A program made the position numbers and the translations under genes. A stretch of DNA of 64,000 nucleotides, from positions 165,139 to 229,138 of the forward strand of contig JACQUX010000038.1 of assembly GCA_016210045.1 (NCBI GenBank), written 5' to 3'. Positions 32,360 to 49,290 of this stretch are shown one piece after another; within the stretch, counting starts at the first letter, position 1; each line of letters opens with the position of its first letter. Source of the stretch: Deltaproteobacteria bacterium. Lineage in GTDB: Bacteria; UBA10199; GCA-002796325; JACPFF01. The notes beneath the pieces are model-generated. The model had not been told where the DNA came from and did no database searches. It saw nothing but the letters and a program-made list of their open reading frames with translations.

Positions 32360-33520
32360 TTAGATCTCGGGGAGAAATCCGAGCCGATCGAGCGTTTCGA
32401 CTACGCTGTCGAGTGAAGGCGCTGCAGCTGCGGCGGCTCTTGGGGCCGGGCGTTTTTGGACGATTCGTAGCGGATTGCGAGCGATCGCCGTCATGAGCGC
32501 TGGGCTCCACGGGGCTTGCGTCAGATGGTAACGCCGGAGGGCCGCCTTCGTGAGCGCCATACGGGCTTTGGGTGGATCGAGATGCCAATCGACCAGTAAA
32601 TGTTGCCACGCCGGCGGGACTGCGAGTTTTTGTTCCATCAGTTGCGTCGCATGTTCCACGCCCTTCACGAGGACTTCCACGGTGATCCACGCATCGCTGA
32701 TCCGATCCACCAAGTCCGCACAATAGCCAGCCAGGCCTCCGTAGTCGGCGTCACATTCGGTCGCGACGCGCTGCAAGTCCGCTAGCGGCGGGAAACAGGC
32801 GGCAAAGCGATCGAGCTTGTGTCGCAGCGTCGTCCGGAATCGGATTTCGTCGATGAGATTCGCAAAGGCCAGCGCAGGATCGCGGTCGGCAAGGAGCTCG
32901 ATTTCGAGCGTCACGGGATCGCGGCTGGTCATCCGTGCCAGCCCTAACGCGAAATCTCGTTCTTCGGGTGGCGTCTCGGCGACGTGATAGCGAATGACGA
33001 GAGGCTCCCGAGGATCTGGAGCCATTTGCCGCAGGGCCGAGGCATAGATGCAGCGGCGCGGATCCGAGGTATTCGAGAGTGGCGCGATCAGGTCCAATGG
33101 GCTGAGTTTGCCGGCCAACGCTGCCGTGTTGCGGTGTTGCGTGGCACGGCGTGCGCGTTCCGCGCTACGACTGGGATGCGGTGGTCGTTCCGCGCGCCGA
33201 GGCGCCGCATCTTCTGCCGGGGGCACGCGGCTCTCGAAGAGGCGCCGTGCGAGCAAAACGGTGCCGGGGACGAAGCGCGCGACGCGCGCATGAGCCGTGG
33301 GCGCGCCGGGTGCGCGGAGTGCCACGGGCGCTGCGCGTTGCATCGGCTTTGGTATTAATGGTGTCGGGGCGCCGGGAAATACGTGCAATTTCCCGCCAAT
33401 GGCAGTGCCGGTGCCCGGGCGCAACTTGCCGCCCCCGCCCATGCGGCCCCGAAACGGTCCAAAAGGTCCTCCCCCGGGTCCCCGGGGCGGTCGCGTACCC
33501 ATCATAAGAGGTATCGGCAA
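32360..33520 (-). CDS. Hypothetical protein; the Gly/Pro-rich N-terminus may be a start-codon over-extension
   Basis: Long ORF with coding-like C-terminal two-thirds and no recognisable family. Divergent from the two-component operon. Confidence 0.4.
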   Translation of the reverse strand: MPIPLMMGTRPPRGPGGGPFGPFRGRMGGGGKLRPGTGTAIGGKLHVFPGAPTPLIPKPMQRAAPVALRAPGAPTAHARVARFVPGTVLLARRLFESRVPPAEDAAPRRAERPPHPSRSAERARRATQHRNTAALAGKLSPLDLIAPLSNTSDPRRCIYASALRQMAPDPREPLVIRYHVAETPPEERDFALGLARMTSRDPVTLEIELLADRDPALAFANLIDEIRFRTTLRHKLDRFAACFPPLADLQRVATECDADYGGLAGYCADLVDRISDAWITVEVLVKGVEHATQLMEQKLAVPPAWQHLLVDWHLDPPKARMALTKAALRRYHLTQAPWSPALMTAIARNPLRIVQKRPAPRAAAAAAPSLDSVVETLDRLGFLPEI

Positions 33521-33668
33521 TCTGCCGGAAAAGTTGTGTCAGTCGGCGAACGACAAGTGCACGGCGGACGCGTATCGCAGAACGAACGGCGCCGTGCAAC
33601 GGAAATGATTTGATATCGAATGACTGCGGTCATGGCGTCTCGGCGTCGGCAGGCGTCCGATAGCCGGT

Positions 33669-35276
33669 ATGGGGCCGCAAGCGCGCACACTCAGCATAAA
33701 ACACCGGATCTTGCTGTTCTCCGTGGTGGGACTCGGTATCTCGATCGCGATGGTCTTGATGTACAGCGTGGCCCATGTGCGCGAGGCGATCGACCGCAGG
33801 GTCACCGAACAACAGCGCGTGACGACGTTGGTGGCTCGGCATCTGGATCACGTGCTGCAATCCCAACTCACAACGTTGAGCGGGCTTTCGCTGTTGCCGG
33901 GCGTGGATCTGCACGACGCCGATTGGGAGCCGGAGCGGGTGGCAATTCACGGCATGGTCCGCACGTCACTTTTTCGGAAGGGGATTTTTTTGCAAGACGC
34001 GCAAGGCGCGGTCCCGTTGCGCGAGCCGATGGATGCCCTCGTGCCGGCGGTCGCGTGGTCGGCCGTATCGTTGCATAAACCGTTAGTGACGACGGTGACG
34101 GCCGACGGGGCGGGGGGCGCGCGGTGGATCCTCATGGTGTTGCCGTTGCGTGACGGGCGCGGGGGCAGCTTCGGTATCATCGGCGGCCTGATCGACCCGG
34201 CCCAGACGGGATGGGTCACGGCGCTGTTTCCGGCAGCGGCCGACCTTCCAGGCATGATCGAGGTGTTGGATCGCGATGGCGTCGCGGTGTGGCGCACGGG
34301 ATGGTCCGACACCACCGCTGTCACGACGGCGCATGATGATGTCTCCGCGACCGTCACGGAGGCCGCGCTGGCCGTGGCGCCGTGGCGAGTGTCTGTGCGG
34401 CAACCGCGAAGCGCGGCGTGGCGGTCTGTGATGTCGTTGCAAACGCGAGCCGTCTTGCTGGCCCTGTTGCTTTTGCTGGTCGGACTCGGGTTTGCGCTCG
34501 GCATGGCCCGCAGTGTGACGCGCCCGATCGCGGTGTTGCAACGGAGCGCGCAGCAGATCGCCGATGGGGATTTCGCGCGGCCGGTCCCGCTGCTGGGCGG
34601 CGACGAACTGGGCGTGCTCAGTCGCCACTTCGAAGTGATGCGGGTCCGGTTGTTTTCCTGGCATCGGGAACTGGAAGGAAAAATCCGGGAACGCACCCAG
34701 AAGATCATTACGGCACAAGAGGAAGAACGGAAGCGGATTGCACGGGAGCTGCACGACGACTTGGCGCAAAAGATGGCCGCGCTGCTGCTGAAACTCGAGT
34801 TGCAGCGGCCGGAGGAGGCGCGCGCATTGGCCATTCAAGTGCTCGACGACATGCAGCGGTTAATGCGCAATTTGCGGCCGTCGATCTTGGACGATGTCGG
34901 ACTCAATTCGGCGATCCGCTGGTTGGTGAAACACAATCTCACGGCGACGGGCGTTGCGACGCAATTGTTTCTCGATGAGTCGCATCCGCGCTTGGCGCCG
35001 GCGCTGGAAACGGCTGTCTTTCGCGTGGTGCAGGAAGCGGTGGCAAACGTCTGTCGTCATGCGGCGGCGCAGCGAGTCGTCATTTGCACGCAACAGCAAC
35101 ACGACGTACTCCACGTCACGATTGAAGATGACGGTTGCGGATTCGATCCCGCGGCGGCCGCGAGCTTCGGGATTGCAGGGATGCAAGAGCGGGTCGCGTT
35201 AGTCGACGGGCGGATGCAGATCGACGCGGTCCCGGGACGCGGCACGAAGATCCGCGTGGAGGTTCCACTGCGATGA
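33669..35276 (+). CDS. Sensor histidine kinase, NarL/HisKA_3 type, with two TM segments and HAMP-like linker
   Basis: Two hydrophobic segments flank a ~230 aa periplasmic region. H-box EERKRIARELHDDLAQ (HisKA_3). C-terminal HATPase with N box, EDDGCGF and G2 motifs. Confidence 0.85.
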   Translation: MGPQARTLSIKHRILLFSVVGLGISIAMVLMYSVAHVREAIDRRVTEQQRVTTLVARHLDHVLQSQLTTLSGLSLLPGVDLHDADWEPERVAIHGMVRTSLFRKGIFLQDAQGAVPLREPMDALVPAVAWSAVSLHKPLVTTVTADGAGGARWILMVLPLRDGRGGSFGIIGGLIDPAQTGWVTALFPAAADLPGMIEVLDRDGVAVWRTGWSDTTAVTTAHDDVSATVTEAALAVAPWRVSVRQPRSAAWRSVMSLQTRAVLLALLLLLVGLGFALGMARSVTRPIAVLQRSAQQIADGDFARPVPLLGGDELGVLSRHFEVMRVRLFSWHRELEGKIRERTQKIITAQEEERKRIARELHDDLAQKMAALLLKLELQRPEEARALAIQVLDDMQRLMRNLRPSILDDVGLNSAIRWLVKHNLTATGVATQLFLDESHPRLAPALETAVFRVVQEAVANVCRHAAAQRVVICTQQQHDVLHVTIEDDGCGFDPAAAASFGIAGMQERVALVDGRMQIDAVPGRGTKIRVEVPLR

Positions 35277-35950
35277 CACCCATCACGGCCACGATTAATG
35301 TGCTGATTGTCGATGATCACGCGATTTTGCGGGAGGGCATCCGCGCGTTGCTCGCGGCCGCGGAGGATATGGTGGTGGTCGGTGAGGCGGCCAATGGCCA
35401 AGAGGCGATCGAGCGGGTTGAGGAACGGCGGCCGGATGTCGTCTTGATGGATATCGCGATGCCGGGGCTCGGTGGGCTCGAAGCCACGCGGCAGGTCTGC
35501 GTGCGGAGTAAAGTCCTGATCCTCACGCAGTACGACAATCCGGAGTATATCTATCGCGCATTCAAGTCCGGTGCCTTGGGCTACATTCTGAAACGCGCCC
35601 TTGGGAGTGAACTGTTGACCGCGATTCGCGCGGTGCATCGCGGCCGCACTTATCTCGATCCGACGATCGCGTCCGACGTCATTGCCGGATATCTGCGTGA
35701 TCGGGGGGAGCACGTAGTGACCGATCCGTACGAACTCTTGACGGATCGCGAGCGCCAAGTGCTGAAACTCTTCGCGGAAGGTTGCACGGCGAAAGAAGTG
35801 GCGACGGTATTGAAAGTCAGCGTGAAGACAGCGGGGGCGCATCGTGACAACCTGATGCGCAAGTTAGGGCTCCATAATCGGGCCGCGCTGGTGCGGTTCG
35901 CGATCGAAAAAGGCGTGCTCTCGGGCATTAAAGAGGGAGAAATCGGGTGA
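35272..35950 (+). CDS. Response regulator, NarL/LuxR family (REC + HTH)
   Basis: REC domain (VLIVDDH...DVVLMDIAMPG...) plus C-terminal LuxR-type HTH (LTDRERQVLKLFAEGCTAKEVATVLKVSVKTAGAHRDNLMRKLG). ATGA overlap with the kinase gene. Confidence 0.9.
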
Positions 35951-36013
35951 GTGCCCAATGGTTAAAGTGTGGCCGACATCGTATCTTGGTGGCGAACCAA
36001 GAAGGAGGTACGT

Positions 36014-36208
36014 ATGAAAACCACATTGCAAGCCATCGGGATGCTCGTGACAGGGTCGCTGTTGGGCCTGCTGTACGTCATCTTTCTCCCGTTCATCGGC
36101 TTCACGATGGTGTTCTATCACGGCATCGTGTGGGCGGGGCGGGCGGCGCGACGGGCGGTGAGCCTCTGCGCAGACGCGGTGGAGAGAAGGGTACGGGACA
36201 AGGCATGA
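36014..36208 (+). CDS. Small (64 aa) membrane protein
   Basis: Strong Shine-Dalgarno (AAGGAGG, 6 nt spacer) before the ATG. One long hydrophobic helix (AIGMLVTGSLLGLLYVIFLPFIGFTMVFY). Stop overlaps the cytochrome c gene start. Confidence 0.5.
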   Translation: MKTTLQAIGMLVTGSLLGLLYVIFLPFIGFTMVFYHGIVWAGRAARRAVSLCADAVERRVRDKA

Positions 36209-37257
36209 AGCGCTGCTGGGTGGTCGTGGGGCTGTGCGGGCTGTTGTTGGGGCCGATAGTCGAGGCGCAGAGCCAAGAGAAAAATGCCGCGTGTCTGGCG
36301 TGCCATGACGATCCGACGTTGACCACGTCGTTGTCGAGCGGCGAGTCGCTGGTCTTGCACGTCGACCCGCAGCAGTTTGCCGGATCGGTGCATGGCGCGC
36401 AACTCTCCTGCACCGACTGCCATGATGTGGCGCTGGAGTCGCATCCGAGCGGGACTGTGGCATTTGCGACGCGGCGCCAATATGCGCTGGCGATGTATGA
36501 AAATTGTAAGCGGTGCCATTTTTCCAATTACACCAAATTGTTGGAAAGCGTGCATTACGACATGCTGGCGCAAGGGGCGCTGCACGCGCCGGTCTGCGTC
36601 GATTGCCACGGCGCCCATGATGTGGAACGGCCGGCCGCGGATCGCCAAGGCATCTCGCGGCGCTGTGCCACGTGCCATCATACAATTTATGCTACGTATG
36701 CCACGAGTGTGCATGGCGCGGCGCTGCTCGGCGACAACAACCAAGACGTTCCCGTATGCACCGATTGCCATACGGCCCACAATATTCAGGACCCGCGGTC
36801 CGCGCAATTTCATTTGGAGTCCCCGGAGGTCTGCGGACGGTGTCATGCCAACGCCCCGTTAATGGCCAAATACGGTCTTTCAACGGACGTCTTGCGCACG
36901 TATCTGAACGACTTTCATGGCGTCTCGGTGCAGTTGCATCGACAGGAAGGCGCCCCCGAATCGACCGCAGTGACGGCGGGGTGTATCGATTGTCACGGCG
37001 TTCATAATATCAGTCGAGCCGATGCGCCGAATTCAACCGTCATGAAAACCAATCTCGTCCAACAGTGCCGGCGCTGTCATCCGGAGGCCTCGGAGCACTT
37101 TCCCGATGCGTGGCTGTCGCATTACGAGCCGACGCCGACCAAGGCGCCGCTCGTCTACGCGGTGAAGCTCTTTTATCGGATCTTTATTCCGTTCATCATC
37201 GGGGGGCTGGCGCTCCATATCTTGCTCCATATCTGGCGAGCGATCGTGAATCGATAG
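36205..37257 (+). CDS. Multiheme c-type cytochrome with nine CXXCH motifs, signal peptide and C-terminal membrane anchor
   Basis: Nine haem-binding motifs: CLACH, CTDCH, CKRCH, CVDCH, CATCH, CTDCH, CGRCH, CIDCH, CRRCH. N-terminal signal peptide. C-terminal hydrophobic helix. Confidence 0.85.
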   Translation: MKRCWVVVGLCGLLLGPIVEAQSQEKNAACLACHDDPTLTTSLSSGESLVLHVDPQQFAGSVHGAQLSCTDCHDVALESHPSGTVAFATRRQYALAMYENCKRCHFSNYTKLLESVHYDMLAQGALHAPVCVDCHGAHDVERPAADRQGISRRCATCHHTIYATYATSVHGAALLGDNNQDVPVCTDCHTAHNIQDPRSAQFHLESPEVCGRCHANAPLMAKYGLSTDVLRTYLNDFHGVSVQLHRQEGAPESTAVTAGCIDCHGVHNISRADAPNSTVMKTNLVQQCRRCHPEASEHFPDAWLSHYEPTPTKAPLVYAVKLFYRIFIPFIIGGLALHILLHIWRAIVNR

Positions 37258-37266
37258 GAGGCGGTT

Positions 37267-37953
37267 GTGCGAAAGTGGATACGCTTTACCCGGCAAGATC
37301 GTCTGGAGCACTGGCTGGTCGCGCTCTGTTTTCTGTTGTTGGTGTGGACCGGGCTGCCACAAAAATACTACGGAGCCGAGGTGTCGCAGTGGATCATCGC
37401 CCACAGTGGCGGGATCGATTACACCCGATTACTACATCGCGTGGTCGGTTTTGTTTTTACTGCGCTGACCGTATGGCATGTCGGCTCGCGCGTCTGGGGC
37501 TTTCTGCGCAAAAAAATTGCCCCCTCGATGCTGCCGACGAAACGCGATTTTACCGACGCGATCACGAATCTACGCTATTACATGGGGCTCACGGACCACG
37601 AAGCGCGCTGCGATCGATTCGATTACAAACAGAAGTTCGAATATTGGGGCATGCTGATGGGGAGCGCCGTGATGATCGCCACCGGGCTGCTGCTCTATGC
37701 GCCGGCATGGTTCACGCAGTGGTTGCCCGGGGTGTTGATCCCCGCCGCTAAAGTGGCGCACAGCAATGAGGCAATGTTGGCACTGCTCGTAATCGTCGTT
37801 TGGCATTTGTACGGCGTGGTGTTCAGCCCCGAAGTCTTCCCGCTCGATACCAGTATGTTCACCGGCAACATTTCGGAAGAGCGGATGAAGAAAGAACATC
37901 CGTTGGAATACGAACGCCTGCAGCGCGAAGCGGAGACGCCGCCGCTCACTTGA
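37267..37953 (+). CDS. Membrane cytochrome b (Ni/Fe-hydrogenase / formate dehydrogenase gamma-subunit-type, PF01292-like)
   Basis: 228 aa, 4 TM helices with conserved His residues (..EHWLVA.., ..HRVVGF.., ..VWH..) in the arrangement of dihaem cytochrome b quinone-interacting subunits. Confidence 0.75.
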   Translation: MRKWIRFTRQDRLEHWLVALCFLLLVWTGLPQKYYGAEVSQWIIAHSGGIDYTRLLHRVVGFVFTALTVWHVGSRVWGFLRKKIAPSMLPTKRDFTDAITNLRYYMGLTDHEARCDRFDYKQKFEYWGMLMGSAVMIATGLLLYAPAWFTQWLPGVLIPAAKVAHSNEAMLALLVIVVWHLYGVVFSPEVFPLDTSMFTGNISEERMKKEHPLEYERLQREAETPPLT

Positions 37954-40900
37954 CGTCGAAGTAGCGCGCGGCGGGATGGTGCACGATCAAGGCCGACGTG
38001 CTGGCTTCCGGATCCATTTGGAACGTCTCGCTGAGACTGACGCCGATCCGTTCCGGTTGCAGCAATTCAAACAGCAGCGCCTGATCCTCTAAATTCGGAC
38101 ACGCGGGATATCCGAAACTGTACCGACTCCCTTGATACCCTTGGTGATACAGTCCCTCGATCGTTGTCGCGTCGGCTCCCGTAATGCCAAGTTCCACGCG
38201 GATTGCCCGGTGCCAATATTCCGCCAACGCCTCCGCCGTTTCGACCGAAAGCCCGTGGAGATAGAGGTAATCCGTGTAATTGCCCGCTTCGTAATACTGC
38301 TGACACACGGCCTTCGCGCGCGCGCCGATCGTGACCACATGCAGCCCGATCACGTCCATCGTGCCCGCATCGAGCGGCCGGAAGAAATCCGCAATGCAGT
38401 GATACGGCTCTCGCGGCTGCCGCGGAAACGTAAACAGCACGCGCTCTTGCCGCGTCTCCGGATCCAACACGATCACGTCATTGCCCACCGCGCCACAGGG
38501 GAAATATCCGTACACCACCTGCGGCGCGAAAATCCCCTCCCGCTCCACGCGTCCCGTCAACTCGCGAAAGATCGGTTCAATTTTTTCCCGCACCAGCGCT
38601 TCATACTCCGCCTTCCGCATCTGCCCCTGCCGAAACTGCCACTGCCCCTTGAACAACGCCGTCCGATTAATCAACGGCCACAGTTGCCCCACAGCAATAT
38701 CCCCCACCACCCGCGTCCCCCAAAACGGCGGCGTAGGGATTGAAGCCGCCATCTTAATGGCAGAGCGCCTGCCTCGTCCCCCCAATAAAGTGGAGGATTG
38801 CGATGCAGCCGGAGACGGGATGGGGTCCGCGGGGGGGACTTGCGGAGCCCGCTGCAACGATGTTGTTGATACCGCAGCGGGCGAGCATGAGCGCGGCTGC
38901 GGCGCGTAAGCCGCAGCCGACGCGTGCCCCCCCGCGGACCCCATCCCGTCTCCGGCTGCCACCTTGCATTCCGAAACGACCGCTTCCATCACCCGCAACC
39001 CCTCGAACGCATCTTTACCATAATACACCGCCCGCCCATACGCGCTCGCCAAGTCGCTCTCCACAAAGCGCCGCGTCAACGCCGCCCCGCCGCAGATCAC
39101 TGGGATCGCCAGGCCGCGGTGCGACATCTCTTCCAAGTTTTCCTTCATGATCGCCGTCGACTTCACCAGCAAGCCCGACATCCCGATCGCGTGCGCCGCA
39201 TGCTGTTCCGCCGCCGCCAACATCTGTTCCAACGGGACTTTAATGCCGAGATTGTAGACCGTGTAGCCGTTGTTGGTCAGGATGATATCGACCAAGTTCT
39301 TTCCGATGTCATGCACGTCGCCTTTTACCGTTGCCAACACGATCTTCCCCTTCGATTGGCCCTCGACCCGCTCCATGTGCGGTTCCAGGAATGTCACTGC
39401 GGCTTTCATGACTTCCGCCGACTGGAGCACAAACGGGAGTTGCATCTTGCCGGCGCCGAACAACTCGCCCACGACTTTCATCCCGTCGAGCAGGATCGTG
39501 TTGATAATTTCGAGCGGCGCGTAGCGCCCCATTGCCTCGCGGAGCAACGGTTCCAAGTCGGTGCGGCGTCCGTTGATGATCCGTTGTTTCAACCGTTCTT
39601 CGAGCGGTGCGGCGCGATCCTCCGCTTCGCTGGGACCCGTCTCCAAACGGTTCGTCTGAAAATAGGCCATGAACGCCGTGAGCGGATCGCCTTGGCTGCG
39701 GTCGTTGTGCACCAGCCGCTGCGCCAACTGGAGTGCCGCATCGGGGATTCGGTTGAGCGGCAAGATCTTCGCGGCGTGGACAATGGCGGCGTCGAGCCCG
39801 GCCTCGACAGCGGCGTGCAAGAAGACGCTGTTCAACACGACGCGGGCCGCCGGATCGAGGCCGAACGAAATATTGCTGACGCCCAAGACCGTGCGCACGC
39901 CGGGCAATGTGGCCTTGACTTGGCGAATTCCGGCAAGCGTCTGGACGCCGGCATCATGAAATTCAGCGTCGCCGCTGCCGAGCGTGAACGTCAGCGTGTC
40001 GAACAACAGATCTTCCGGCTTCAGGCCGTATTCTTCCACACAGAGGCGATAGATCCGTTGCGCAATGGCGACTTTTTGTTCCGCGCGCTTCGCCATCCCT
40101 TGTTCGTCGATGGTCAGCGCAATCACGCCGGCGCCGAAGCGCCGCGCCAGTTCCAAGACACGCCGCGCGCGCGCGTCGCCGTCTTCCAAGTTGATCGAGT
40201 TGATCAGGCAGCGTCCGCCGGCGAGCGCGAGCGCGTGCTCCAACACCGGGAGCTCGGTGGTGTCGATCACGAGTGGCAGCGGAACTTGCGTGACATAGCG
40301 GCGGATCGTTTCCGTCATATCGCGCACTTCGTCGCGGCCCACGTACGCTACGCAAACGTCGAGCGCGTGACAGCCTTCGGCGACTTGTTCTTTCGCCATC
40401 TCGACCAGGCCATCCCAATCGTCGCGTTGCAATAAGTCGCGGAATTTTTTCGACCCGTTCGCATTGGTCCGCTCGCCGATCAGAAACGGCCGCGGCTCTT
40501 GGTCGAGCGCTTGCGCGGTGTACATGCTGCTCACCGCGGGCGTCCATTCCACCGTGCGGGCGTTGGGCGCTCGTCCGGCCAGCGCGATGGAGAGTGCGCG
40601 GATATGTTCGTCGGTCGTCCCGCAGCAGCCGCCAACTGCGGCGACGCCGTAATGCTCGACGAAATACGTCTGCCACTGGACGAATTCCTCCGGCGTGAGG
40701 CGGTAATGGGCGTGGCCGCCGACATTTTCCGGCAGTCCGGCGTTTGGATTGATCACGATCGGGACGGGACAGTGTTGACTTAAATGGCGGACGTTGTCTT
40801 CCATCTCCTTCGGACCGGTCGCGCAGTTCATTCCGAAGAGATCGATGCCATACGGCAGCAATGCCGTGCAGGCCGCGCCGATTTCGGTGCCGATCAACAT

Positions 40901-41491
40901 GGTGCCGGTCTGTTCGATCGTGACGGAGACGAGGATCGGGACGCGCTGTCCGGCCGTGGCCATCGCCTCGTGCGCCGCGACGATCGCGGCCTTGACTTGC
41001 AGCAAGTCCTGACAGGTCTCGATCGCGAAGAGATCCACGCCGCCTTCGAGTAATCCGAGACATTGTTCGGCATATGAAAGGCGCAATTCGTCGAATGTGG
41101 TTTGCCCTAAGGTGGCGAGTTTAGTGCCGGGACCGATCGAGCCGGCCACAAAGCGCGGTCGTTCCGGCGTGGCGAATTGGTCGGCGGTCCGTCGCGCGAG
41201 CGCGGCGGCGCTGCGATTCAGTTCTTGCGCCTGTGCAGCGATGTCGTACTCCGCCAATACGATCCGGTTGGCGCCGAACGTATCAGTCTCGACGATGTCG
41301 GCGCCGGCCGCATAATAGCGGGTATGAATGTCGGCAATCGTATCTGGGCGGGTGACGACCAGATATTCGTTGCACCCCTCCAGCGCCTTGCCGCCGAAAT
41401 CGTCCGCGGTCAGCCCGACCCGTTGGATCATCGTGCCCATGCCACCGTCGAATACGAGCACGCGCCGTTGTAGAAGCGTCAACAGTTCCAC
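37946..41491 (-). CDS. metH: Cobalamin-dependent methionine synthase
   Basis: 1181 aa with all four modules: Hcy-binding (N-term), pterin-binding, B12-binding (DxHxxG-type region ...GDVHDIGKNLV...) and the C-terminal AdoMet activation domain. Confidence 0.95.
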   Translation of the reverse strand: MELLTLLQRRVLVFDGGMGTMIQRVGLTADDFGGKALEGCNEYLVVTRPDTIADIHTRYYAAGADIVETDTFGANRIVLAEYDIAAQAQELNRSAAALARRTADQFATPERPRFVAGSIGPGTKLATLGQTTFDELRLSYAEQCLGLLEGGVDLFAIETCQDLLQVKAAIVAAHEAMATAGQRVPILVSVTIEQTGTMLIGTEIGAACTALLPYGIDLFGMNCATGPKEMEDNVRHLSQHCPVPIVINPNAGLPENVGGHAHYRLTPEEFVQWQTYFVEHYGVAAVGGCCGTTDEHIRALSIALAGRAPNARTVEWTPAVSSMYTAQALDQEPRPFLIGERTNANGSKKFRDLLQRDDWDGLVEMAKEQVAEGCHALDVCVAYVGRDEVRDMTETIRRYVTQVPLPLVIDTTELPVLEHALALAGGRCLINSINLEDGDARARRVLELARRFGAGVIALTIDEQGMAKRAEQKVAIAQRIYRLCVEEYGLKPEDLLFDTLTFTLGSGDAEFHDAGVQTLAGIRQVKATLPGVRTVLGVSNISFGLDPAARVVLNSVFLHAAVEAGLDAAIVHAAKILPLNRIPDAALQLAQRLVHNDRSQGDPLTAFMAYFQTNRLETGPSEAEDRAAPLEERLKQRIINGRRTDLEPLLREAMGRYAPLEIINTILLDGMKVVGELFGAGKMQLPFVLQSAEVMKAAVTFLEPHMERVEGQSKGKIVLATVKGDVHDIGKNLVDIILTNNGYTVYNLGIKVPLEQMLAAAEQHAAHAIGMSGLLVKSTAIMKENLEEMSHRGLAIPVICGGAALTRRFVESDLASAYGRAVYYGKDAFEGLRVMEAVVSECKVAAGDGMGSAGGHASAAAYAPQPRSCSPAAVSTTSLQRAPQVPPADPIPSPAASQSSTLLGGRGRRSAIKMAASIPTPPFWGTRVVGDIAVGQLWPLINRTALFKGQWQFRQGQMRKAEYEALVREKIEPIFRELTGRVEREGIFAPQVVYGYFPCGAVGNDVIVLDPETRQERVLFTFPRQPREPYHCIADFFRPLDAGTMDVIGLHVVTIGARAKAVCQQYYEAGNYTDYLYLHGLSVETAEALAEYWHRAIRVELGITGADATTIEGLYHQGYQGSRYSFGYPACPNLEDQALLFELLQPERIGVSLSETFQMDPEASTSALIVHHPAARYFDVK

Positions 41492-42331: not shown

Positions 42332-45300
42332 ATGAATGTGTCAATATGTGAAAACCTTCCGATTGCACCCCCGTTGGGGGCGTGGCACAATGGTCGCGTG
42401 ATCGAAAAGAGTCTGAACCTCGGCCATCTGGCCGAGGATTTTGCAAAGTTGTTGGTCGATGTCCCGGGCGAATCCCTGCCCGAAGACACGATTCAATTGG
42501 AGGAAGGAGAGCGACGCGAAGTCACGATCCTTTTCCTCGATATCGTCGGCTATACGCGGCTGGCGGAACAACTCGATCCGGAACAACTCAAGTTCGTCAT
42601 CTCGAACACGTTGCAAGTCTTTACCAATCAGATCAAACGCTGCGGCGGGACGGTCGAGAAATACGTCGGCGACGCGATCATGGCGTTGTTCGGCCGTTCG
42701 GAGGCGCACGAAGACGATTCGCGGCGCGCGGTGGCCGCCGCGCGCGCCATCTTGGAACGGCTCGAAGACATCAACAGCATCCTGGCGCAGAAGGGGATCA
42801 ACATCAGTTGTCGGATCGGCGTGAATCGCGGTTTGATCGTCACCGGACAGATGGGCGAACACGACACCGTGACCGGCGAAGCGATCAATATCGCGCAACG
42901 GTTGGAAGCCAACGCCCCATCGAACGGGATTCTCGTCTCCGACTCTGTTTTTGCGGAATGTCAGGCATATTACGATTGCCAAGCCTTGCCGCCGCTGCAT
43001 GTGAAAAATAAGACCGAGCCGGTGATCGTCTATTTAGTGAGCGACGAAAAGGCCGGCGGCGATCGCGTGATGATCCGGCATGAAGGGACGTTCGCGGGAC
43101 GGGAAGGGGAACGGTCGACGTTGCGGGCGGTGTGGGAGCGGGCCGCGCAAGGGCAAATGGGTTTGGTGCAGGTGGTCGGCGAGGCCGGGGTCGGCAAGAG
43201 CGCGCTGTTGCAAGCGGTGATGCAGGAAATGCGGTCCGAGACGTTGCGCGCGGCGACCGTGTATTTCAAGGCCGATTCGTTCGGATTGACGCCCTACCAT
43301 GTCCTTTCGGACTTGGTGCGGGAATATTTGGCCGGACACGTGACGAGTCTCGAGGACTTTATCGCGGCGATTCCGGACGCGGCGTTGCGCGACGGTCTCG
43401 GCGCGTATCGACTGTATCTCACAGATATTCTCGGATTGCCGCTCGGTGAAGACGATCGGCAGCGCTTATCGCGGATGGATCCGCGGGCGCGCCAAGCGGA
43501 AACCAATTTGGCGTTGAAACGCTTTATCGAAGCCGCCGTGGCGACCGAACGCGTCCGTGGTGCGCTGCCGCTGGTGATCGCGGTCGACAACTTTCAATGG
43601 GTCACGCATGCCTCGCGCGAGGCGCTCAGTCAAATCATCCAGACGTTGCCGTCCGAATCGGCGGTACTCTGGCTGATGGCGGGGCGCAGCGGCGATGCGG
43701 CGCCATGGTTGTCGGCGCAATTGGGGGCAACCGTGTTGCAACTCACGCCGTTGCCGTTCGAGGCCGCAGCGACACTGATTCGGGCGCGTTTCCCGGAACG
43801 CGTGTTAGGCGACGAGTTTTGTCGTCGTCTGTTTTTGCGCAGCGGCGGCAACGCGCTGTTTCTCAACGAACTGGTCGGCGAGTTGCGGCACGACAGCGAT
43901 CTGAGCGATGTCAGTTTCGCTGAGCGGCTGCCGTCGTCGATCAAGGCGTTAGTGTTGTCGCGTCTGGATCGACTGCCGCGTCCGGAAAAATTCGCGCTGC
44001 AACTCGGCGCGTTGGCGGGGCGGGAATTTTCCGAAGACCTGTTGCGCCATGTGCTGCGGCGCGCGATGTACGATTACGACGCCACGCAACTGATCGAACG
44101 GCTCTGTGCCGCGAATTTCCTGGCCCGCAGCGATCACGGCGTCACGATCGCGCAGCCGATGCTGACCGAAGTCGCGTACTCCACGATTTTGTACGCCAAT
44201 CGCCGCAAACTCCACGCGACCGTCGCGCAGTGGGTGGAAGACAATCGTCCCGACATCTCGATTTACGCCGCGTATTTGGCCGAACAGTGGGAGCGGGCCG
44301 AGGAATATGCGAAGGCGTATCATTACTATGCCGACGCCGGGCATTCCGCGCGGCGCCGCTATGCGCAACGCGAAGCGGCGACATTCCTTGAAAAGGCCCT
44401 CAAGTTCCGATCGGCGGCGAATGCGACTCCGGACCAATTGGCGGAGGTGTACGGACATTTGGTCGGCGCGTTCGAGGCGTTGGGCGATCAGGAAAAATGG
44501 CAATTGTATTTAAAAGAAGGGTTGCAATATGCTCCGCCCGAAAGCCGGATGCATTTTCGCTTTCGCTTGTCCGCGATCGAAGTGGAGCAGCGCTATGGCG
44601 ACCGCGCGAAGGCAAAAGAGCGATTGGCTGTGTTTCTTGCCGATGCCGCCGTGCAGGCCAATGCGGAAGTCCATTTGCGGGCGTTGCTGACGGCCAGTAA
44701 TTTTGCGAACGATCAAGGCGCCGACGACACCGCCTTCATCGGCACGGCATTGGCGTTGCGTCCCAAAATTCAAGACGTGGATCTCCAAGAGAAACTCGAT
44801 CATTGCGTGTTTAATCATTACAAAAACGCGGACGAGCTGACGCAAGCGGAACAATATCTCATGCGGCTGCTGGATGCGGCGCAGACGGATTTTCGGCGTC
44901 ATTTGTGCGATCTTTTTTATTGTTCGTTCGCGTGGGATCGTGGCGTTGATTTCGCGGCGATCATGACGCGGGCGTTGGCGGCGCAGAACTATTGGCGAGA
45001 AGTCGGCTGGGTGCGGGGCGTCGGCTGGGGCGCGTTTTATCGAGGCGCGGCGTTATGGCGGATGAGCCGTTACACGGAGGCGCGGCAGGTCTTCATTGAA
45101 GGCGTCAAGGAATTAGAACGCGCGCGGGACCAATTCATGTTGGGTAAATTGGAACTCGTGTTGGCGGCGATCCATCTATTCAGCGGCGATCAAGTGAATT
45201 ACCAAGTGCGGAAGAATCGGATTCTCACGCACGCGCAGCAGACGTCGGAATCGGAATGGCTCGCGCTGCGGCGCGAATTTGCGATGTTCGAAGGCCAATG

Positions 45301-45757
45301 CCTCGAGCCGCGCCATGCGCTGACGGGCGTGTATGAAGAACTCGTCGCGACCGGGTCGGCGCCGTTAGCGAAGGTGCAGATCGACGAATATACCGTCACA
45401 TTGGCGCTCGTGGCCGTGCAGTTAGGCCACACCGTGGAGGCGGAACAGTTAATCCACAAAGTGGGTCCGCATATTCGCGACAATGAAAAGACGTGGCTGT
45501 GGGGACTGTGCGGCCGGGTCGAGGCGTTGATCGCCGCGGCGCGGGAGGAGTGGGAACCGATGGAACGGTCGTTTGCGGAGAGCGTGCTGCGGTTTCAAAA
45601 ACTCGGCGCGCTGTACGACGCGTATCAGACCTATCGCGGTTGGTGGCGGGCGTTGAAGCAGCGAGGATTGGGAGAAACGCCGACCGGGGCAACGGTCCAG
45701 CAAGCGCTGGCGCAGCTGGCGGTTTCGGTGGGTGTGCCGGGGGAGGGACGGGGATGA
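42332..45757 (+). CDS. Adenylate/guanylate cyclase (class III) fused to STAND-type AAA ATPase and TPR/helical repeats
   Basis: Cyclase domain motifs (VTILFLDIVGYTRL..., ...KYVGDAIMALFG...). Walker A (VVGEAGVGKSALL). A long C-terminal helical repeat region. 1141 aa. Confidence 0.85.
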   Translation: MNVSICENLPIAPPLGAWHNGRVIEKSLNLGHLAEDFAKLLVDVPGESLPEDTIQLEEGERREVTILFLDIVGYTRLAEQLDPEQLKFVISNTLQVFTNQIKRCGGTVEKYVGDAIMALFGRSEAHEDDSRRAVAAARAILERLEDINSILAQKGINISCRIGVNRGLIVTGQMGEHDTVTGEAINIAQRLEANAPSNGILVSDSVFAECQAYYDCQALPPLHVKNKTEPVIVYLVSDEKAGGDRVMIRHEGTFAGREGERSTLRAVWERAAQGQMGLVQVVGEAGVGKSALLQAVMQEMRSETLRAATVYFKADSFGLTPYHVLSDLVREYLAGHVTSLEDFIAAIPDAALRDGLGAYRLYLTDILGLPLGEDDRQRLSRMDPRARQAETNLALKRFIEAAVATERVRGALPLVIAVDNFQWVTHASREALSQIIQTLPSESAVLWLMAGRSGDAAPWLSAQLGATVLQLTPLPFEAAATLIRARFPERVLGDEFCRRLFLRSGGNALFLNELVGELRHDSDLSDVSFAERLPSSIKALVLSRLDRLPRPEKFALQLGALAGREFSEDLLRHVLRRAMYDYDATQLIERLCAANFLARSDHGVTIAQPMLTEVAYSTILYANRRKLHATVAQWVEDNRPDISIYAAYLAEQWERAEEYAKAYHYYADAGHSARRRYAQREAATFLEKALKFRSAANATPDQLAEVYGHLVGAFEALGDQEKWQLYLKEGLQYAPPESRMHFRFRLSAIEVEQRYGDRAKAKERLAVFLADAAVQANAEVHLRALLTASNFANDQGADDTAFIGTALALRPKIQDVDLQEKLDHCVFNHYKNADELTQAEQYLMRLLDAAQTDFRRHLCDLFYCSFAWDRGVDFAAIMTRALAAQNYWREVGWVRGVGWGAFYRGAALWRMSRYTEARQVFIEGVKELERARDQFMLGKLELVLAAIHLFSGDQVNYQVRKNRILTHAQQTSESEWLALRREFAMFEGQCLEPRHALTGVYEELVATGSAPLAKVQIDEYTVTLALVAVQLGHTVEAEQLIHKVGPHIRDNEKTWLWGLCGRVEALIAAAREEWEPMERSFAESVLRFQKLGALYDAYQTYRGWWRALKQRGLGETPTGATVQQALAQLAVSVGVPGEGRG

Positions 45758-46850: not shown

Positions 46851-46960
46851 TGGCTGGTAAGCGGCGCGCATAGCACACGTTGTTCCCAGCCACCAGTCAC
46901 GAGTCACCAGCCACCGCTTTTCCCAGTCACCAGTCACTAGCCACCAGTCACGCATCTAAA
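46851..46960. repeat. CCAGYCA heptamer tandem array (locus 3 of 4)
   Basis: The array cccagccaccagtcacgagtcaccagccaccgcttttcccagtcaccagtcactagccaccagtcacg lies between convergent genes, preceded by an inverted block gtggctggt. Confidence 0.6.
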
Positions 46961-49148
46961 ACTCCGTCACTTCCACCGGTGTAGTTTGCGGGGGCAGTTG
47001 ATAGCCGGGGTTGATGCCGATGCCGAGTTGTCCCGAGCTTGGATCGCCCCACGCCCAGACAGTGCCGTCGTTCTTGAGCGCCAAACTGTGGCGCATTCCC
47101 GCCGCGACGGCGATCACGCGGTCCAAATTCACGGTCGTGGGGTCGCAAGAGGTCCGGTCGATCGTCGTGCCGTCGCCCAGTTGCCCATTGTCGTTCTCGC
47201 CCCACGCGAAGACGCGGCCGCTCGCATCGATCGCCAAGAAATGGTTGCTATTGGCGCCTAAGCCGGCATCCACGATATTCGACAATGCAGTGACCTGGCG
47301 TGGGCCGGTGTTCCATTCGTTCTCCACGTCGCAATAGCTGCCGCCCCAGACCCAAAGTGTGCCGTCGCGTTTGACGGCCAACGAGACGCCGCTGCCTGCG
47401 GCAATGTCGACGACATCGGAGATCCCGGGGATTTGGGTGGGAGTTGGGACGTAGCGGTCGTCGGGAGACGAATTCGAATCATACGGCGTAATCTCGCCAT
47501 TCACGGACCATCCCCACCCCCACACCGTGCCGTCGCTGCGCAGTGCCAGATTATGAAACGATCCCGCTGCGAGTGTGACGACGTTTGACAGCGAGCCGAT
47601 GAGTACCGGGGTCAAGCGGTCGGTCGTCGTGCCATCCCCCAATTGTCCGGTGCCGTTATCGCCCCAGGCCCAGATCGTGCCGTCGTTGCGCAGCGCAATG
47701 TTGTGACTGTCGCCCGCGCCGACAGTAATGATATTGCTGAGCGACGAAACTTGGATCGGCGTCGGGCTATAGGTCGTGGTCCCGTTGCCGAGTTGCCCCG
47801 AACGATTACTCCCCCACGTCCAGACCGTGCCGTCGCGTGCCCGCGCCACGGCGTGTTGCGGCCCGGCGCTTAGCTGAGTCGCTGCGATGTTCACCACGGC
47901 TGGCGTGAAGACGTTGGTCTGTCCTTCGCCCGTGCCGAGCGTATATTCCACGCCATCATCCACCGCCCACCGGATATAATTGTTGCCCCATCCGTACACG
48001 GTCCCATCGACATCCAACGTGTACGAAGTCACGTTGCCAGCAAAGACGCCGACGAATCCGGTCGACGCGGCAGTGGTCGATGCCAACGTGACGTCATCGT
48101 CCGCCGCACGACCTGGGACGGCGAGCAGCTCTTGGGCGGTGCATCCGCTGGCCGCGCTACCAGCCAGCGTAACGCAGCTTTGCGACGCGCTTTCTCCGTC
48201 GACCGTGTAGGTTGTGTAAAGTTTGCCCGAGGCCGGGGTCCAAGTGGCCGTGAATTCGACATCCGCTTCGGCGCCGAAGTCCGCGTGCGTCCCGAGCACT
48301 GCGGCCTGTACCACGGTGTCGCTGGCCGCGGTCTTGTCGCGGGCGATCGACTGTGACGAGCCCGCCGTTTCGGTCAAGTACGCGTGCGACGTCTCCACGT
48401 CGAACCCGGTGAGATCGGGGAGCGACGTCGACCAATACAGCTCGAGTTGTCGGCTAGTCGTCGCTTGCTGATCCCAGACGCCGCTCAGCACGTAGGTTTC
48501 CACCCCGCGGATCTGCGCGTCTTCGTTGGTGCCGGTGTTGTGCGTCCCGAAGAGGCGGAAACAGCCGGCCCCTTGTCCGGTGTCGTCTTCGGCCGGCAGC
48601 GCGGTGAATTTCCCGACGAAGACGCGGCGATTGTTCACATACAGCCGGACACACATCGGCAGTTCGCCCGCATTGCCCGAACAACTGGCGGAGCAATCGA
48701 CGGTCGAGATCTGTTGATTGGACAGCGCGGGAAACGTGAAGGACGAAAAGTCGAGTCGGTAACTGCTGCCACCTGCCGTCGTGCCGGTGGTCGCGGTCGT
48801 CGCGGTGTTATTTTCGACTTCGATGCCGCTGAGCAACAGCAGCAGCGCGTCTAATCGATCGCTCGCATCGTCGACAAATGAGAGCGCCCGTTCCGGCGCC
48901 CCGCTGCCAGAGAGTGCCTTCGCCGACTTGGCCGCGCTGACACTGCTGCTGCTCGAGCTCACCGTGCCGACGCCGACGCCTAAACTATTAGGGAACGAGA
49001 AGTTGCCGGTGGCGGACGGCAGTTCAATCGGAATCGGCGTGCTGGTTCCTCCGCCGGTCGGGACCCCGGCGCCGCCACAGGCGGCCACGCCGATACACAG
49101 CATCAAGACAGAGATACACCGCCAACACACCTGGGACGGTTTTCGCAT
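46956..49148 (-). CDS. Secreted/lipoprotein RCC1-repeat (regulator of chromosome condensation-like beta-propeller) protein
   Basis: The C-terminal half is seven consecutive ~50 aa repeats of the form ...HxxALxxDGTVWxWGxNxxGQLGxG.... The N-terminus is a signal/lipobox (MLCIGVAACGGAG), then a Thr/Ser-rich region. Confidence 0.8.
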   Translation of the reverse strand: MRKPSQVCWRCISVLMLCIGVAACGGAGVPTGGGTSTPIPIELPSATGNFSFPNSLGVGVGTVSSSSSSVSAAKSAKALSGSGAPERALSFVDDASDRLDALLLLLSGIEVENNTATTATTGTTAGGSSYRLDFSSFTFPALSNQQISTVDCSASCSGNAGELPMCVRLYVNNRRVFVGKFTALPAEDDTGQGAGCFRLFGTHNTGTNEDAQIRGVETYVLSGVWDQQATTSRQLELYWSTSLPDLTGFDVETSHAYLTETAGSSQSIARDKTAASDTVVQAAVLGTHADFGAEADVEFTATWTPASGKLYTTYTVDGESASQSCVTLAGSAASGCTAQELLAVPGRAADDDVTLASTTAASTGFVGVFAGNVTSYTLDVDGTVYGWGNNYIRWAVDDGVEYTLGTGEGQTNVFTPAVVNIAATQLSAGPQHAVARARDGTVWTWGSNRSGQLGNGTTTYSPTPIQVSSLSNIITVGAGDSHNIALRNDGTIWAWGDNGTGQLGDGTTTDRLTPVLIGSLSNVVTLAAGSFHNLALRSDGTVWGWGWSVNGEITPYDSNSSPDDRYVPTPTQIPGISDVVDIAAGSGVSLAVKRDGTLWVWGGSYCDVENEWNTGPRQVTALSNIVDAGLGANSNHFLAIDASGRVFAWGENDNGQLGDGTTIDRTSCDPTTVNLDRVIAVAAGMRHSLALKNDGTVWAWGDPSSGQLGIGINPGYQLPPQTTPVEVTEF

Positions 49149-49290
49149 ATCGTCATGGAAGAGCAAAGGACATGCCGCAGCCCCTCGATGCCAACGCGTC
49201 AATATCGCAACGCTTTTATCCGGCGTATCCGTCCGCCCGGGTAGGCGTTCACCACAAAATCCTCGAAATGAATGAGAATGCACTCATACG

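Follow-up and report, generated by a model that had tools for sequence, protein, structure and literature searches.

Oxidoreductases that connect the quinone pool to the periplasm determine the range of extracellular or low-potential acceptors open to a cell and the share of energy that it conserves, and only a handful have been studied, in Geobacter and Shewanella. In CbcL of Geobacter sulfurreducens (GSU0274), of the CbcL/MtrH/MtoC family, a nine-haem periplasmic cytochrome c domain is fused to a dihaem cytochrome b domain resembling HydC and FdnI. Five candidate b-haem histidines lie over its transmembrane (TM) helices 1, 2, 3 and 5, it has no iron-sulphur (FeS), flavin or molybdopterin subunits, and bis-histidine ligation of all nine c haems was argued from conservation and confirmed by spectroscopy. 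The CbcL type is characterised by menaquinol oxidation that feeds extracellular electron transfer at low potential. CbcBA (GSU0593-0594) pairs a four-helix dihaem cytochrome b with a C-terminally anchored multihaem cytochrome c whose anchor carries a conserved histidine, and the cbcBA operon is under a dedicated, sigma-54-dependent response regulator, BccR. The Nhc complex of Desulfovibrio is built from NhcA, the FeS protein NhcB, the NrfD-like NhcC and NhcD, and contains no cytochrome b (PMC8076601). Here we analysed a 64,000-nucleotide stretch of a Deltaproteobacteria bacterium genome (assembly GCA_016210045.1, contig JACQUX010000038.1, positions 165,139 to 229,138 of the forward strand), hereafter the window, in which five consecutive genes at 33669-37953 encode a histidine kinase, a response regulator, a small membrane protein, a nonahaem cytochrome c and a dihaem cytochrome b. 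We find that the window contains a reduced version of a split, CbcL-like cytochrome whose family is widespread and uncharacterised and has its own conserved two-component system. With moderate confidence, we read the five genes as one unit that specifies a sensor-regulated bc-type cytochrome of the CbcL design, divided over two polypeptides.

The cytochrome c gene (36205..37257, plus strand) was recognised by its CXXCH count and by Pfam matches to Paired_CXXCH_1, Cytochrome_C7 and Cytochrom_c3_2. The first-pass annotation of the window had described a nonahaem cytochrome of 351 residues; the nine haems stand, and the correct length is 350 residues. A signal-like N-terminal helix, assigned as a signal peptide (residues 1-21), precedes a nine-haem periplasmic domain (residues 22-313) and a C-terminal TM anchor (residues 314-348), and an AlphaFold2 model of the protein has a terminal helix at residues 315-348. 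Checked against homologues, the haem count held up and candidate axial ligands emerged: in an alignment of 29 homologues, all nine CXXCH motifs (at residues 30, 69, 101, 131, 154, 185, 210, 260 and 288) were invariant, as were nine further, distal histidines (63, 80, 117, 138, 170, 192, 238, 267 and 306), and the same alignment contained no conserved methionine. Given these nine extra invariant histidines and the lack of a conserved methionine, all nine c haems are probably bis-histidine ligated. Within the anchor helix, His342, Trp344 and Arg345 were also invariant.

Homologues of this cytochrome c are numerous. We found more than 4,300, and a scan of one genome per species placed a relative in at least 597 species. 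The family occurs in Acidobacteriota, Myxococcota, Nitrospirota, Nitrospinota, Actinomycetota (one Acidimicrobiia bin) and Chloroflexota, and its carriers include a cultured and named strain, Anaeromyxobacter terrae SG22 (Myxococcota; locus L010). It is a very large, unnamed family, built to a split version of the CbcL design. Among solved structures, sequence and profile searches of the PDB with the cytochrome c gave weak generic multihaem matches only, and a Foldseek search of the PDB with its AlphaFold2 model (mean predicted local distance difference test score, pLDDT, 71; no haems modelled) returned nothing below E 0.05.

The cytochrome b gene (37267..37953, plus strand; 228 residues, GTG start) encodes a dihaem protein of the FdnI/HydC type. 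Its product matched PF01292 (Ni_hydr_CYTB) over the whole profile (E 5.5e-19; 69.1 bits against a gathering threshold of 30.1) and aligned end to end with FdnI, chain C of the E. coli formate dehydrogenase-N structure (1kqf_C; E 1.5e-11). In this alignment, His15, His57, His165 and His180 fall on the FdnI haem ligands His18, His57, His155 and His169, and the four window residues were invariant in all 75 members of the cytochrome b family. His211 was also invariant wherever its column was present (72 sequences), and His71 was kept in 72 of the 75. Four TM helices follow from the FdnI alignment, and three passed a hydrophobicity scan. The PF01292 match and the four FdnI ligands bear out the earlier assignment of this protein to the hydrogenase/formate-dehydrogenase gamma-subunit type of cytochrome b.

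We examined the surroundings of the family in a set of 80 loci, the best among the cytochrome c relatives with one genome per species. A cytochrome b homologue lay 3' of the cytochrome c gene in every locus (80/80), within a few hundred bases and usually within tens. We searched exhaustively with the cytochrome b in phmmer and obtained 2,095 cluster representatives, and many of the best matches were long proteins with the b domain at the C-terminus. One such protein, P0297 (641 residues), has nine CXXCH motifs spaced as in the window cytochrome c, to which it is 49% identical over 325 residues (E 9e-107), and its anchor helix continues directly into a domain that shares 40% identity with the window cytochrome b. 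P0243, P0245, P0248 and P0271 are also nine-haem c-b fusions, and the c-b fusions as a group (P0243-P0350) carry 7, 9, 13 or 15 CXXCH motifs. Since fused and split forms occur in one family, we infer by Rosetta-stone reasoning that the split partners, and with them the window cytochromes c and b, form one complex.

The fusions also offer a tentative link between the window and CbcL itself. Two fragments of the GSU0274 b domain, taken from text read by optical character recognition (OCR), lay in register with residues 6-34 and 90-129 of the window cytochrome b (z 3-4), and the same OCR-read fragments matched the fused proteins P0350, P0347 and P0311 at z 11-16. These three proteins in turn match the window cytochrome b at E ~1e-40. 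Membership of the window cytochrome b in the CbcL b-domain family is therefore supported, though not proven, by this sequence comparison of the b domain.

The bins that yielded c-b fusions are labelled Anaerolineae, Dehalococcoidia, Armatimonadota and Candidatus Schekmanbacteria. Some other cytochrome b homologues, for example those of 529-967 residues, have the b domain at the N-terminus and a long C-terminal extension. In Anaerolineae-type loci (L040, L046-L084), the c-b pair sits within cytochrome islands that contain CcmF/E/H-like genes, cytochromes with 7 haems (~565 residues) and 10 haems (~715 residues), a Rieske protein, a cytochrome b with a multi-monohaem c tail and, often, a different NarL-class kinase of ~500 residues. 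A longer cytochrome c form of ~475 residues in L019, L031, L041, L044, L045 and L047 has four extra N-terminal CXXCH motifs and thus 13 haems. In these loci a 4Fe-4S protein and/or an NrfD-like gene precedes the cytochrome c gene (one of the two calls is missing in L044, L045 and L047), and the 13-haem cytochrome c, the FeS/NrfD-like genes and the cytochrome b together make up an Hmc-like set. Both the Anaerolineae islands and these Nitrospirota-type settings with 13-haem cytochrome, FeS and NrfD-like genes fit bulk electron transfer.

We then considered the association of the two-component pair with the cytochromes. A response regulator 53-60% identical to that of the window lay beside the cytochromes in 23 of the 80 loci. 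In 22 of these 23, a kinase adjoins it, 26-40% identical to the window kinase and full length where the contig allows; in the remaining locus, L006, the contig ends inside the regulator gene. The kinase is cut by a contig end in five further loci (L014, L039, L041, L045 and L047). Altogether, the kinase/regulator pair accompanies the cytochrome module in ~28 species from Acidobacteriota, Myxococcota, Nitrospirota, Chloroflexota and 'Deltaproteobacteria' bins, and among non-Anaerolineae loci with enough flank it is missing only in L025 and L036.

Three accessory families recur with the pair and the module: c8, a family of one-helix proteins of ~120-140 residues; c6, an M56/M48-peptidase-like membrane protein of ~340 residues with an HExxH motif; and c11, an unannotated anchored protein of ~180 residues. 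Four gene orders were observed. Dehalococcoidia, other Chloroflexota and the window have kinase-regulator-c8-cytochrome c-cytochrome b(-c6-c11), and Nitrospirota have c6-c11-c8-...-cytochrome c-cytochrome b-kinase-regulator. The order cytochrome c-cytochrome b-c6-c11-kinase-regulator is found in Anaeromyxobacter, other Myxococcota and some Acidobacteriota, and other Acidobacteriota have cytochrome c-cytochrome b-kinase-regulator-c8. Most relatives carry both c6 and c11 (L006, L009-L012, L014, L015, L017, L019, L022, L024, L030-L033, L039, L044, L045 and L047), and tblastn found no homologue of either anywhere in the window. Linkage of the pair to the cytochromes that is kept through rearrangement across phyla argues strongly that the two are functionally coupled, and the simplest form of coupling is that the pair regulates the cytochrome genes. 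We therefore regard regulatory coupling as well supported by this conservation, and the association noted in the first-pass annotation as not accidental. A module that travels with its own kinase and regulator across several phyla also offers a testable handle on how a respiratory branch is induced.

The window kinase (33669..35276, plus strand; 535 residues) has TM helices at residues 14-32 and 261-279 in a TM scan, on either side of a periplasmic double-Cache (dCache) domain (residues 33-260, nucleotides 33765-34448). The ~228 residues between the helices agree with the ~230-residue periplasmic sensor that had been proposed. Pfam places a HAMP domain at residues 279-328, HisKA_3 at residues 353-403 (PF07730, E 1.3e-8) and HATPase_c at residues 447-534 (PF02518, E 3.1e-11). 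The response regulator (35273..35950, plus strand; 225 residues) is of the NarL/FixJ class by its Pfam domains, with a Response_reg receiver (PF00072, E 3.8e-27; residues 10-119) and a GerE/LuxR helix-turn-helix (PF00196, E 5.5e-17; residues 155-210). These matches confirm the description as a NarL-type pair for the kinase core and the regulator class. The regulator scored 141 bits as NarL proper and 140 bits as NarP proper, against NCBIfam cut-offs of 250 and 343; the kinase scored 106 bits as NarQ and 74 bits as NarX, against cut-offs of 553 and 578, and for both models the best stretch lay within the kinase core (residues 352-533). None of the five proteins reached an NCBIfam equivalog cut-off, and specific names such as NarX, NarL and FdnI are therefore not assignable to them.

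Identification of the sensor fold gave a clear result. An AlphaFold2 model of kinase residues 1-324 (pLDDT 86) matched the dCache sensor of KinD in Foldseek (4jgo; E 5e-10, TM-score 0.72-0.75), and the dCache sensors of PctA, LuxQ and DctB also matched. The double-Cache fold is common to the window sensor and the kinases KinD, DctB and LuxQ. A four-helix bundle of the NarX/NarQ type was considered for the sensor and ruled out, as the structure predicted for the domain is a dCache alpha/beta fold.

A search with the sensor alone (residues 1-324) gave one weak match, and the full-length kinase as query retrieved the homologues. Full-length homologues are annotated as dCache_1 (PF02743). Among the 104 full-length homologues with two helices (P0122-P0241), 55 have exactly one periplasmic CXXCH motif, mostly CHRCH, and 8 further ones have CXXC only. 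In the alignment, this CXXCH sits in an insertion of ~35 residues in the membrane-proximal module of the dCache_1 domain, and the window kinase has a gap in its place. The feature was noted at loci L005, L010, L011, L015, L019 and L033. The insertion recalls the single-Cache haem-c sensors (sCache_haem, DUF3365/PF11845), which were described in 2026 as nitric oxide or redox sensors. These differ from the present family, whose homologues are dCache_1 and whose window member lacks both a CXXCH and a sensor cysteine, and PF11845 appeared in none of the precomputed domain lists of the kinase homologues. Since the homologues are dCache_1 and PF11845 is absent from those lists, they may be an independent case of a haem-binding Cache domain. 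We conclude that the CXXCH-bearing homologues are a probable haem-binding double-Cache sensor class, which may be undescribed.

In the window kinase, residues 1-324 contain no cysteine, no CXXCH and no recognisable cofactor motif. The first-pass annotation had suggested redox or electron-acceptor sensing. Redox sensing is plausible for the kinase family and unproven for the window member, which lacks the CXXCH insertion and any sensor cysteine and whose sensor more probably recognises a small ligand or a partner protein. A wider proposal, speculative and on balance rather improbable, would make kinase, regulator, small protein and split bc-cytochrome an ancient self-regulating 'redox-sensing respiratory cassette', to which most relatives add the M56-peptidase-like protein and the 180-residue membrane protein. 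Under this proposal, the periplasmic dCache domain would monitor how oxidised or reduced the cytochrome chain in the periplasm is, through a covalent c-haem in about half of the family, and haem-less members such as the window kinase would sense by contact with the cytochrome or the small protein. If it were true, the CXXCH-bearing kinases would be a new haem-dCache sensor class, distinct from the single-Cache PF11845 sensors.

The small membrane protein (36014..36208, plus strand; 64 residues) has one TM helix, at residues 16-34. We identified it as an N-terminally truncated homologue of c8, with which it shares the aligned TM core GLLYVIFLPFIG. In tblastn searches, c8 members were 36-50% identical to the window open reading frame (ORF) over 28-63 residues, and the G+C content at third codon positions of this ORF is 0.82. 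In 22 loci, c8 genes stand beside the module, and their most frequent place is immediately 5' of the cytochrome c gene. The possibility of a longer small-protein gene starting 5' of 36014 was rejected, as the c8-like in-frame stretch there is broken by stops and overlaps the end of the regulator gene.

The five genes are packed tightly on the plus strand, with no gap above 63 nucleotides, and the ORF list and the sequence agree with the first-pass annotation on the genes, their coordinates and their shared strand. The ATG of the regulator gene overlaps the kinase stop by 4 nucleotides (ATGA), the stop of the small ORF overlaps the cytochrome c ATG in the same way (ATGA, 4 nucleotides), and 9 nucleotides separate the cytochrome c stop from the cytochrome b start. 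Between the regulator and the small ORF lies a 63-nucleotide spacer (35951..36013, plus strand) that contains the strong ribosome-binding site attributed to the 64-residue single-helix ORF, AAGGAGG at 36001-36007, and no terminator was predicted in it. Given the two 4-nucleotide overlaps, the 9- and 63-nucleotide gaps and the lack of a predicted terminator in the spacer, the five genes are probably one compact unit transcribed as one operon. The same cytochrome c was found in four independent assemblies, the longest of which calls all five genes identically. At the 3' end, the last 8 nucleotides of the cytochrome b gene (37946-37953) overlap the convergent metH (37946-41491, minus strand, 1,181 residues), an arrangement with no space for a terminator.

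The only sizeable non-coding stretch 5' of the five genes is the intergenic region at 33521..33668, read on the plus strand and divergent from an ORF at 32360-33520, and the operon promoter likely lies within it. A scan of 33200-38300 for sigma-70 promoters and terminators gave matches at chance level only. A binding site for the regulator upstream of 36014 had been anticipated, and neither a search for dyads nor one for the TAGGGY box described below found one. Perfect palindromic dyads shared between the upstream regions of the 23 related loci and the window were GC-rich chance dyads only. The spacer contains a perfect inverted repeat, TCTTGGT-N5-ACCAAGA, at 35984-36002, whose right arm overlaps the start of the ribosome-binding site; by our own rough estimate, ~0.7 repeats this short (7 nucleotides) are expected by chance per 181 bases scanned, and the repeat could be a translational hairpin or a chance occurrence.

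In the relatives, a box A[AC]TAGGG[TC] occurs 12 times within 300 nucleotides 5' of c8 genes, where 1.1 occurrences would be expected, and is present in 9 of 22 loci; a Poisson estimate gives a nominal P of 3e-9 for a motif that was picked by eye before counting. Copies lie at L006 ~710, L008 ~1008, L012 ~7020, L016 ~10122, L022 6435 and 6457, L023 ~7178, L030 ~5727, L043 6650 and 7389, and L044 ~3843. The direct copies in L022 are ~22 bp apart, and L008 has one exact and two near-copies at about the same spacing. We regard this box as a candidate operator of the regulator family. The sole TAGGGC of the window, at 35865, was rejected as an operator: it lies within Lys-Leu-Gly codons of the regulator gene and encodes Leu-Gly of the helix-turn-helix. 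The most economical account of the window is that, after truncation of c8, its cytochrome genes would be read through from the promoter 5' of the kinase gene.

The flanks of the cluster encode Rho, ABC transporters, an MFS transporter, TauE, MetH and a cyclase. The divergent ORF at 32360-33520 (minus strand) has 386 residues, or 360 in the public gene call, with an N-terminus rich in proline, glycine and arginine; it has no Pfam match and is not conserved beside the cassette in other loci. Downstream, 42332-45757 encodes a protein of 1,141 residues with adenylate/guanylate cyclase and AAA ATPase regions, and 46956-49283 a 775-residue RCC1-repeat protein, both unrelated to the cluster. An Rfam scan of the whole window gave no matches, and the base composition did not suggest that the cluster was transferred recently.

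In the model that we favour, the nine-haem cytochrome c, with all haems bis-histidine ligated, would be held in the membrane by its C-terminal helix, and this helix would pack on the four-helix dihaem cytochrome b, which would carry the quinone site. The 64-residue one-helix protein would either be a third subunit or help in assembly. The complex would form a link between the (mena)quinone pool and electron carriers in the periplasm; by analogy with the characterised systems, it would most likely oxidise menaquinol and pass the electrons, by way of two b haems and nine c haems, to an acceptor in the periplasm or outside the cell. The kinase, through its periplasmic dCache domain, and the NarL-class regulator would switch the unit on upon a periplasmic signal.

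Several points weigh against this model. The split family is experimentally uncharacterised, and GSU0274 entered our comparison by two machine-read b-domain fragments only. No gene for an electron partner lies within ~10 kb on either side of the cluster, no promoter or regulator-binding motif was found in the window, and the TAGGGY box of the relatives is in neither of the window's non-coding stretches. The window cassette is also a reduced one, with a truncated small protein, a shortened sensor and neither c6 nor c11. Lastly, by analogy with FdnI, the quinone site would be on the cytoplasmic side, which suits quinone reduction as well as quinol oxidation. With such a site, quinol oxidation would be assisted by the membrane potential and would dissipate it, and the reverse reaction would conserve energy. 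The sequence does not decide the direction of electron flow.

The alternative that survives best, which we consider possible and still unlikely, is that the complex runs in reverse. Electrons from the periplasm, supplied by reduced cytochromes, Fe(II), Mn(II), humics or a syntrophic partner, would then reduce quinone at the cytoplasmic face, and the complex would conserve energy as a redox loop, like formate dehydrogenase-N. FdnI works in the quinone-reducing direction (1KQF), and the window cytochrome b aligns with it over its full length with all four ligands kept. Fusions of the CbcL family (MtoC) occur in Fe(II) oxidisers, and both directions have been proposed in the literature. Two bins also carry relatives: one of Nitrospirota, with a contig labelled 'Mn-Nitrospirae' (L039), and one of Nitrospira (L009). 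However, CbcL and CbcBA, the sole characterised analogues, act as quinol oxidases, no gene for a donor-oxidising enzyme is nearby, and nothing in the sequence fixes the direction.

We give distinctly less credence to the idea that the cytochromes are mainly a sensory accessory, which would inform the kinase of redox conditions in the quinone pool or periplasm, with the regulated targets elsewhere. Co-inheritance of kinase and cytochromes in four gene orders would suit such a role, as would the periplasmic CXXCH of half of the kinase homologues, which could exchange electrons with a multihaem partner, and the window encodes no downstream electron partner. Yet the Anaerolineae loci have the c-b pair without this kinase, in islands with multihaem cytochromes, Ccm and Rieske/cytochrome b genes; nine haems and a dihaem cytochrome b would make a costly sensor, and the window kinase has no haem motif. 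That the two-component and cytochrome genes are chance neighbours of unrelated function is strongly disfavoured and scarcely credible: NarL-class pairs are very common, and neither a regulator-binding site nor a promoter was found in the window, but orthologous pairs stand beside the module in ~28 species and four rearranged orders, only L025 and L036 lack the pair among the informative non-Anaerolineae loci, and the window genes share one strand with at most 63 nucleotides between them.

We return, then, to the model of a regulated, split quinol-oxidising cytochrome and to the described systems with which the window can be compared. The first-pass annotation had cast the cytochromes as a quinol-linked periplasmic module like the nine-haem-cytochrome complexes of sulfate reducers. 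Its regulated, quinone-linked cytochrome module survives our analysis, and the Nhc model does not. Nhc and the window have in common a nine-haem periplasmic cytochrome c linked to the quinone pool. The Nhc complex lacks a cytochrome b and relies on a haem-free NrfD-like membrane subunit and an FeS subunit, whereas the window cluster encodes neither; the NrfD-like and FeS neighbours of related loci had no tblastn match in the window, and the cytochrome c profile retrieved no Nhc-type nine-haem structure from the PDB. Among solved structures, the one nearest to the window cytochrome b is FdnI, the gamma subunit of E. coli formate dehydrogenase-N (1KQF chain C), with all four ligands conserved. 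It differs in its partner, an FeS/molybdopterin dehydrogenase in place of a multihaem cytochrome c, and the window protein falls below the NCBIfam equivalog cut-offs.

CbcBA is closer. Like the window module, it has split b and c subunits, a c anchor helix with a histidine (in the window the invariant His342, within residues 314-348) and a dedicated response regulator. In contrast, CbcA has seven haems against nine in the window, and BccR is sigma-54-dependent, unlike the window regulator, which is of the NarL class and lacks a sigma-54 interaction domain. CbcB is said to provide only three ligand histidines and to be non-homologous to the b domain of CbcL, whereas the window cytochrome b provides four.

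With CbcL, the window shares nine c haems in the periplasm, bis-histidine ligated in CbcL and probably so in the window, and an FdnI-type dihaem cytochrome b, and neither system has an FeS, flavin or molybdopterin subunit. If the anchor is counted as TM1, the window pair gives His342, then His15, His57, and His165 with His180, which reproduces the pattern of the candidate ligands of CbcL, and fused nine-haem relatives of both window proteins exist. CbcL is one polypeptide with six TM helices and a periplasmic domain of 250 residues, whereas the window has two genes 9 nucleotides apart, with one and four helices, and a domain of ~290 residues. Further features of the window are its small membrane protein and its dedicated two-component pair; expression of cbcL, in contrast, is reported to be constitutive. 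CbcL and CbcBA of Geobacter are the right analogues of the window module, and of the two it most resembles CbcL.

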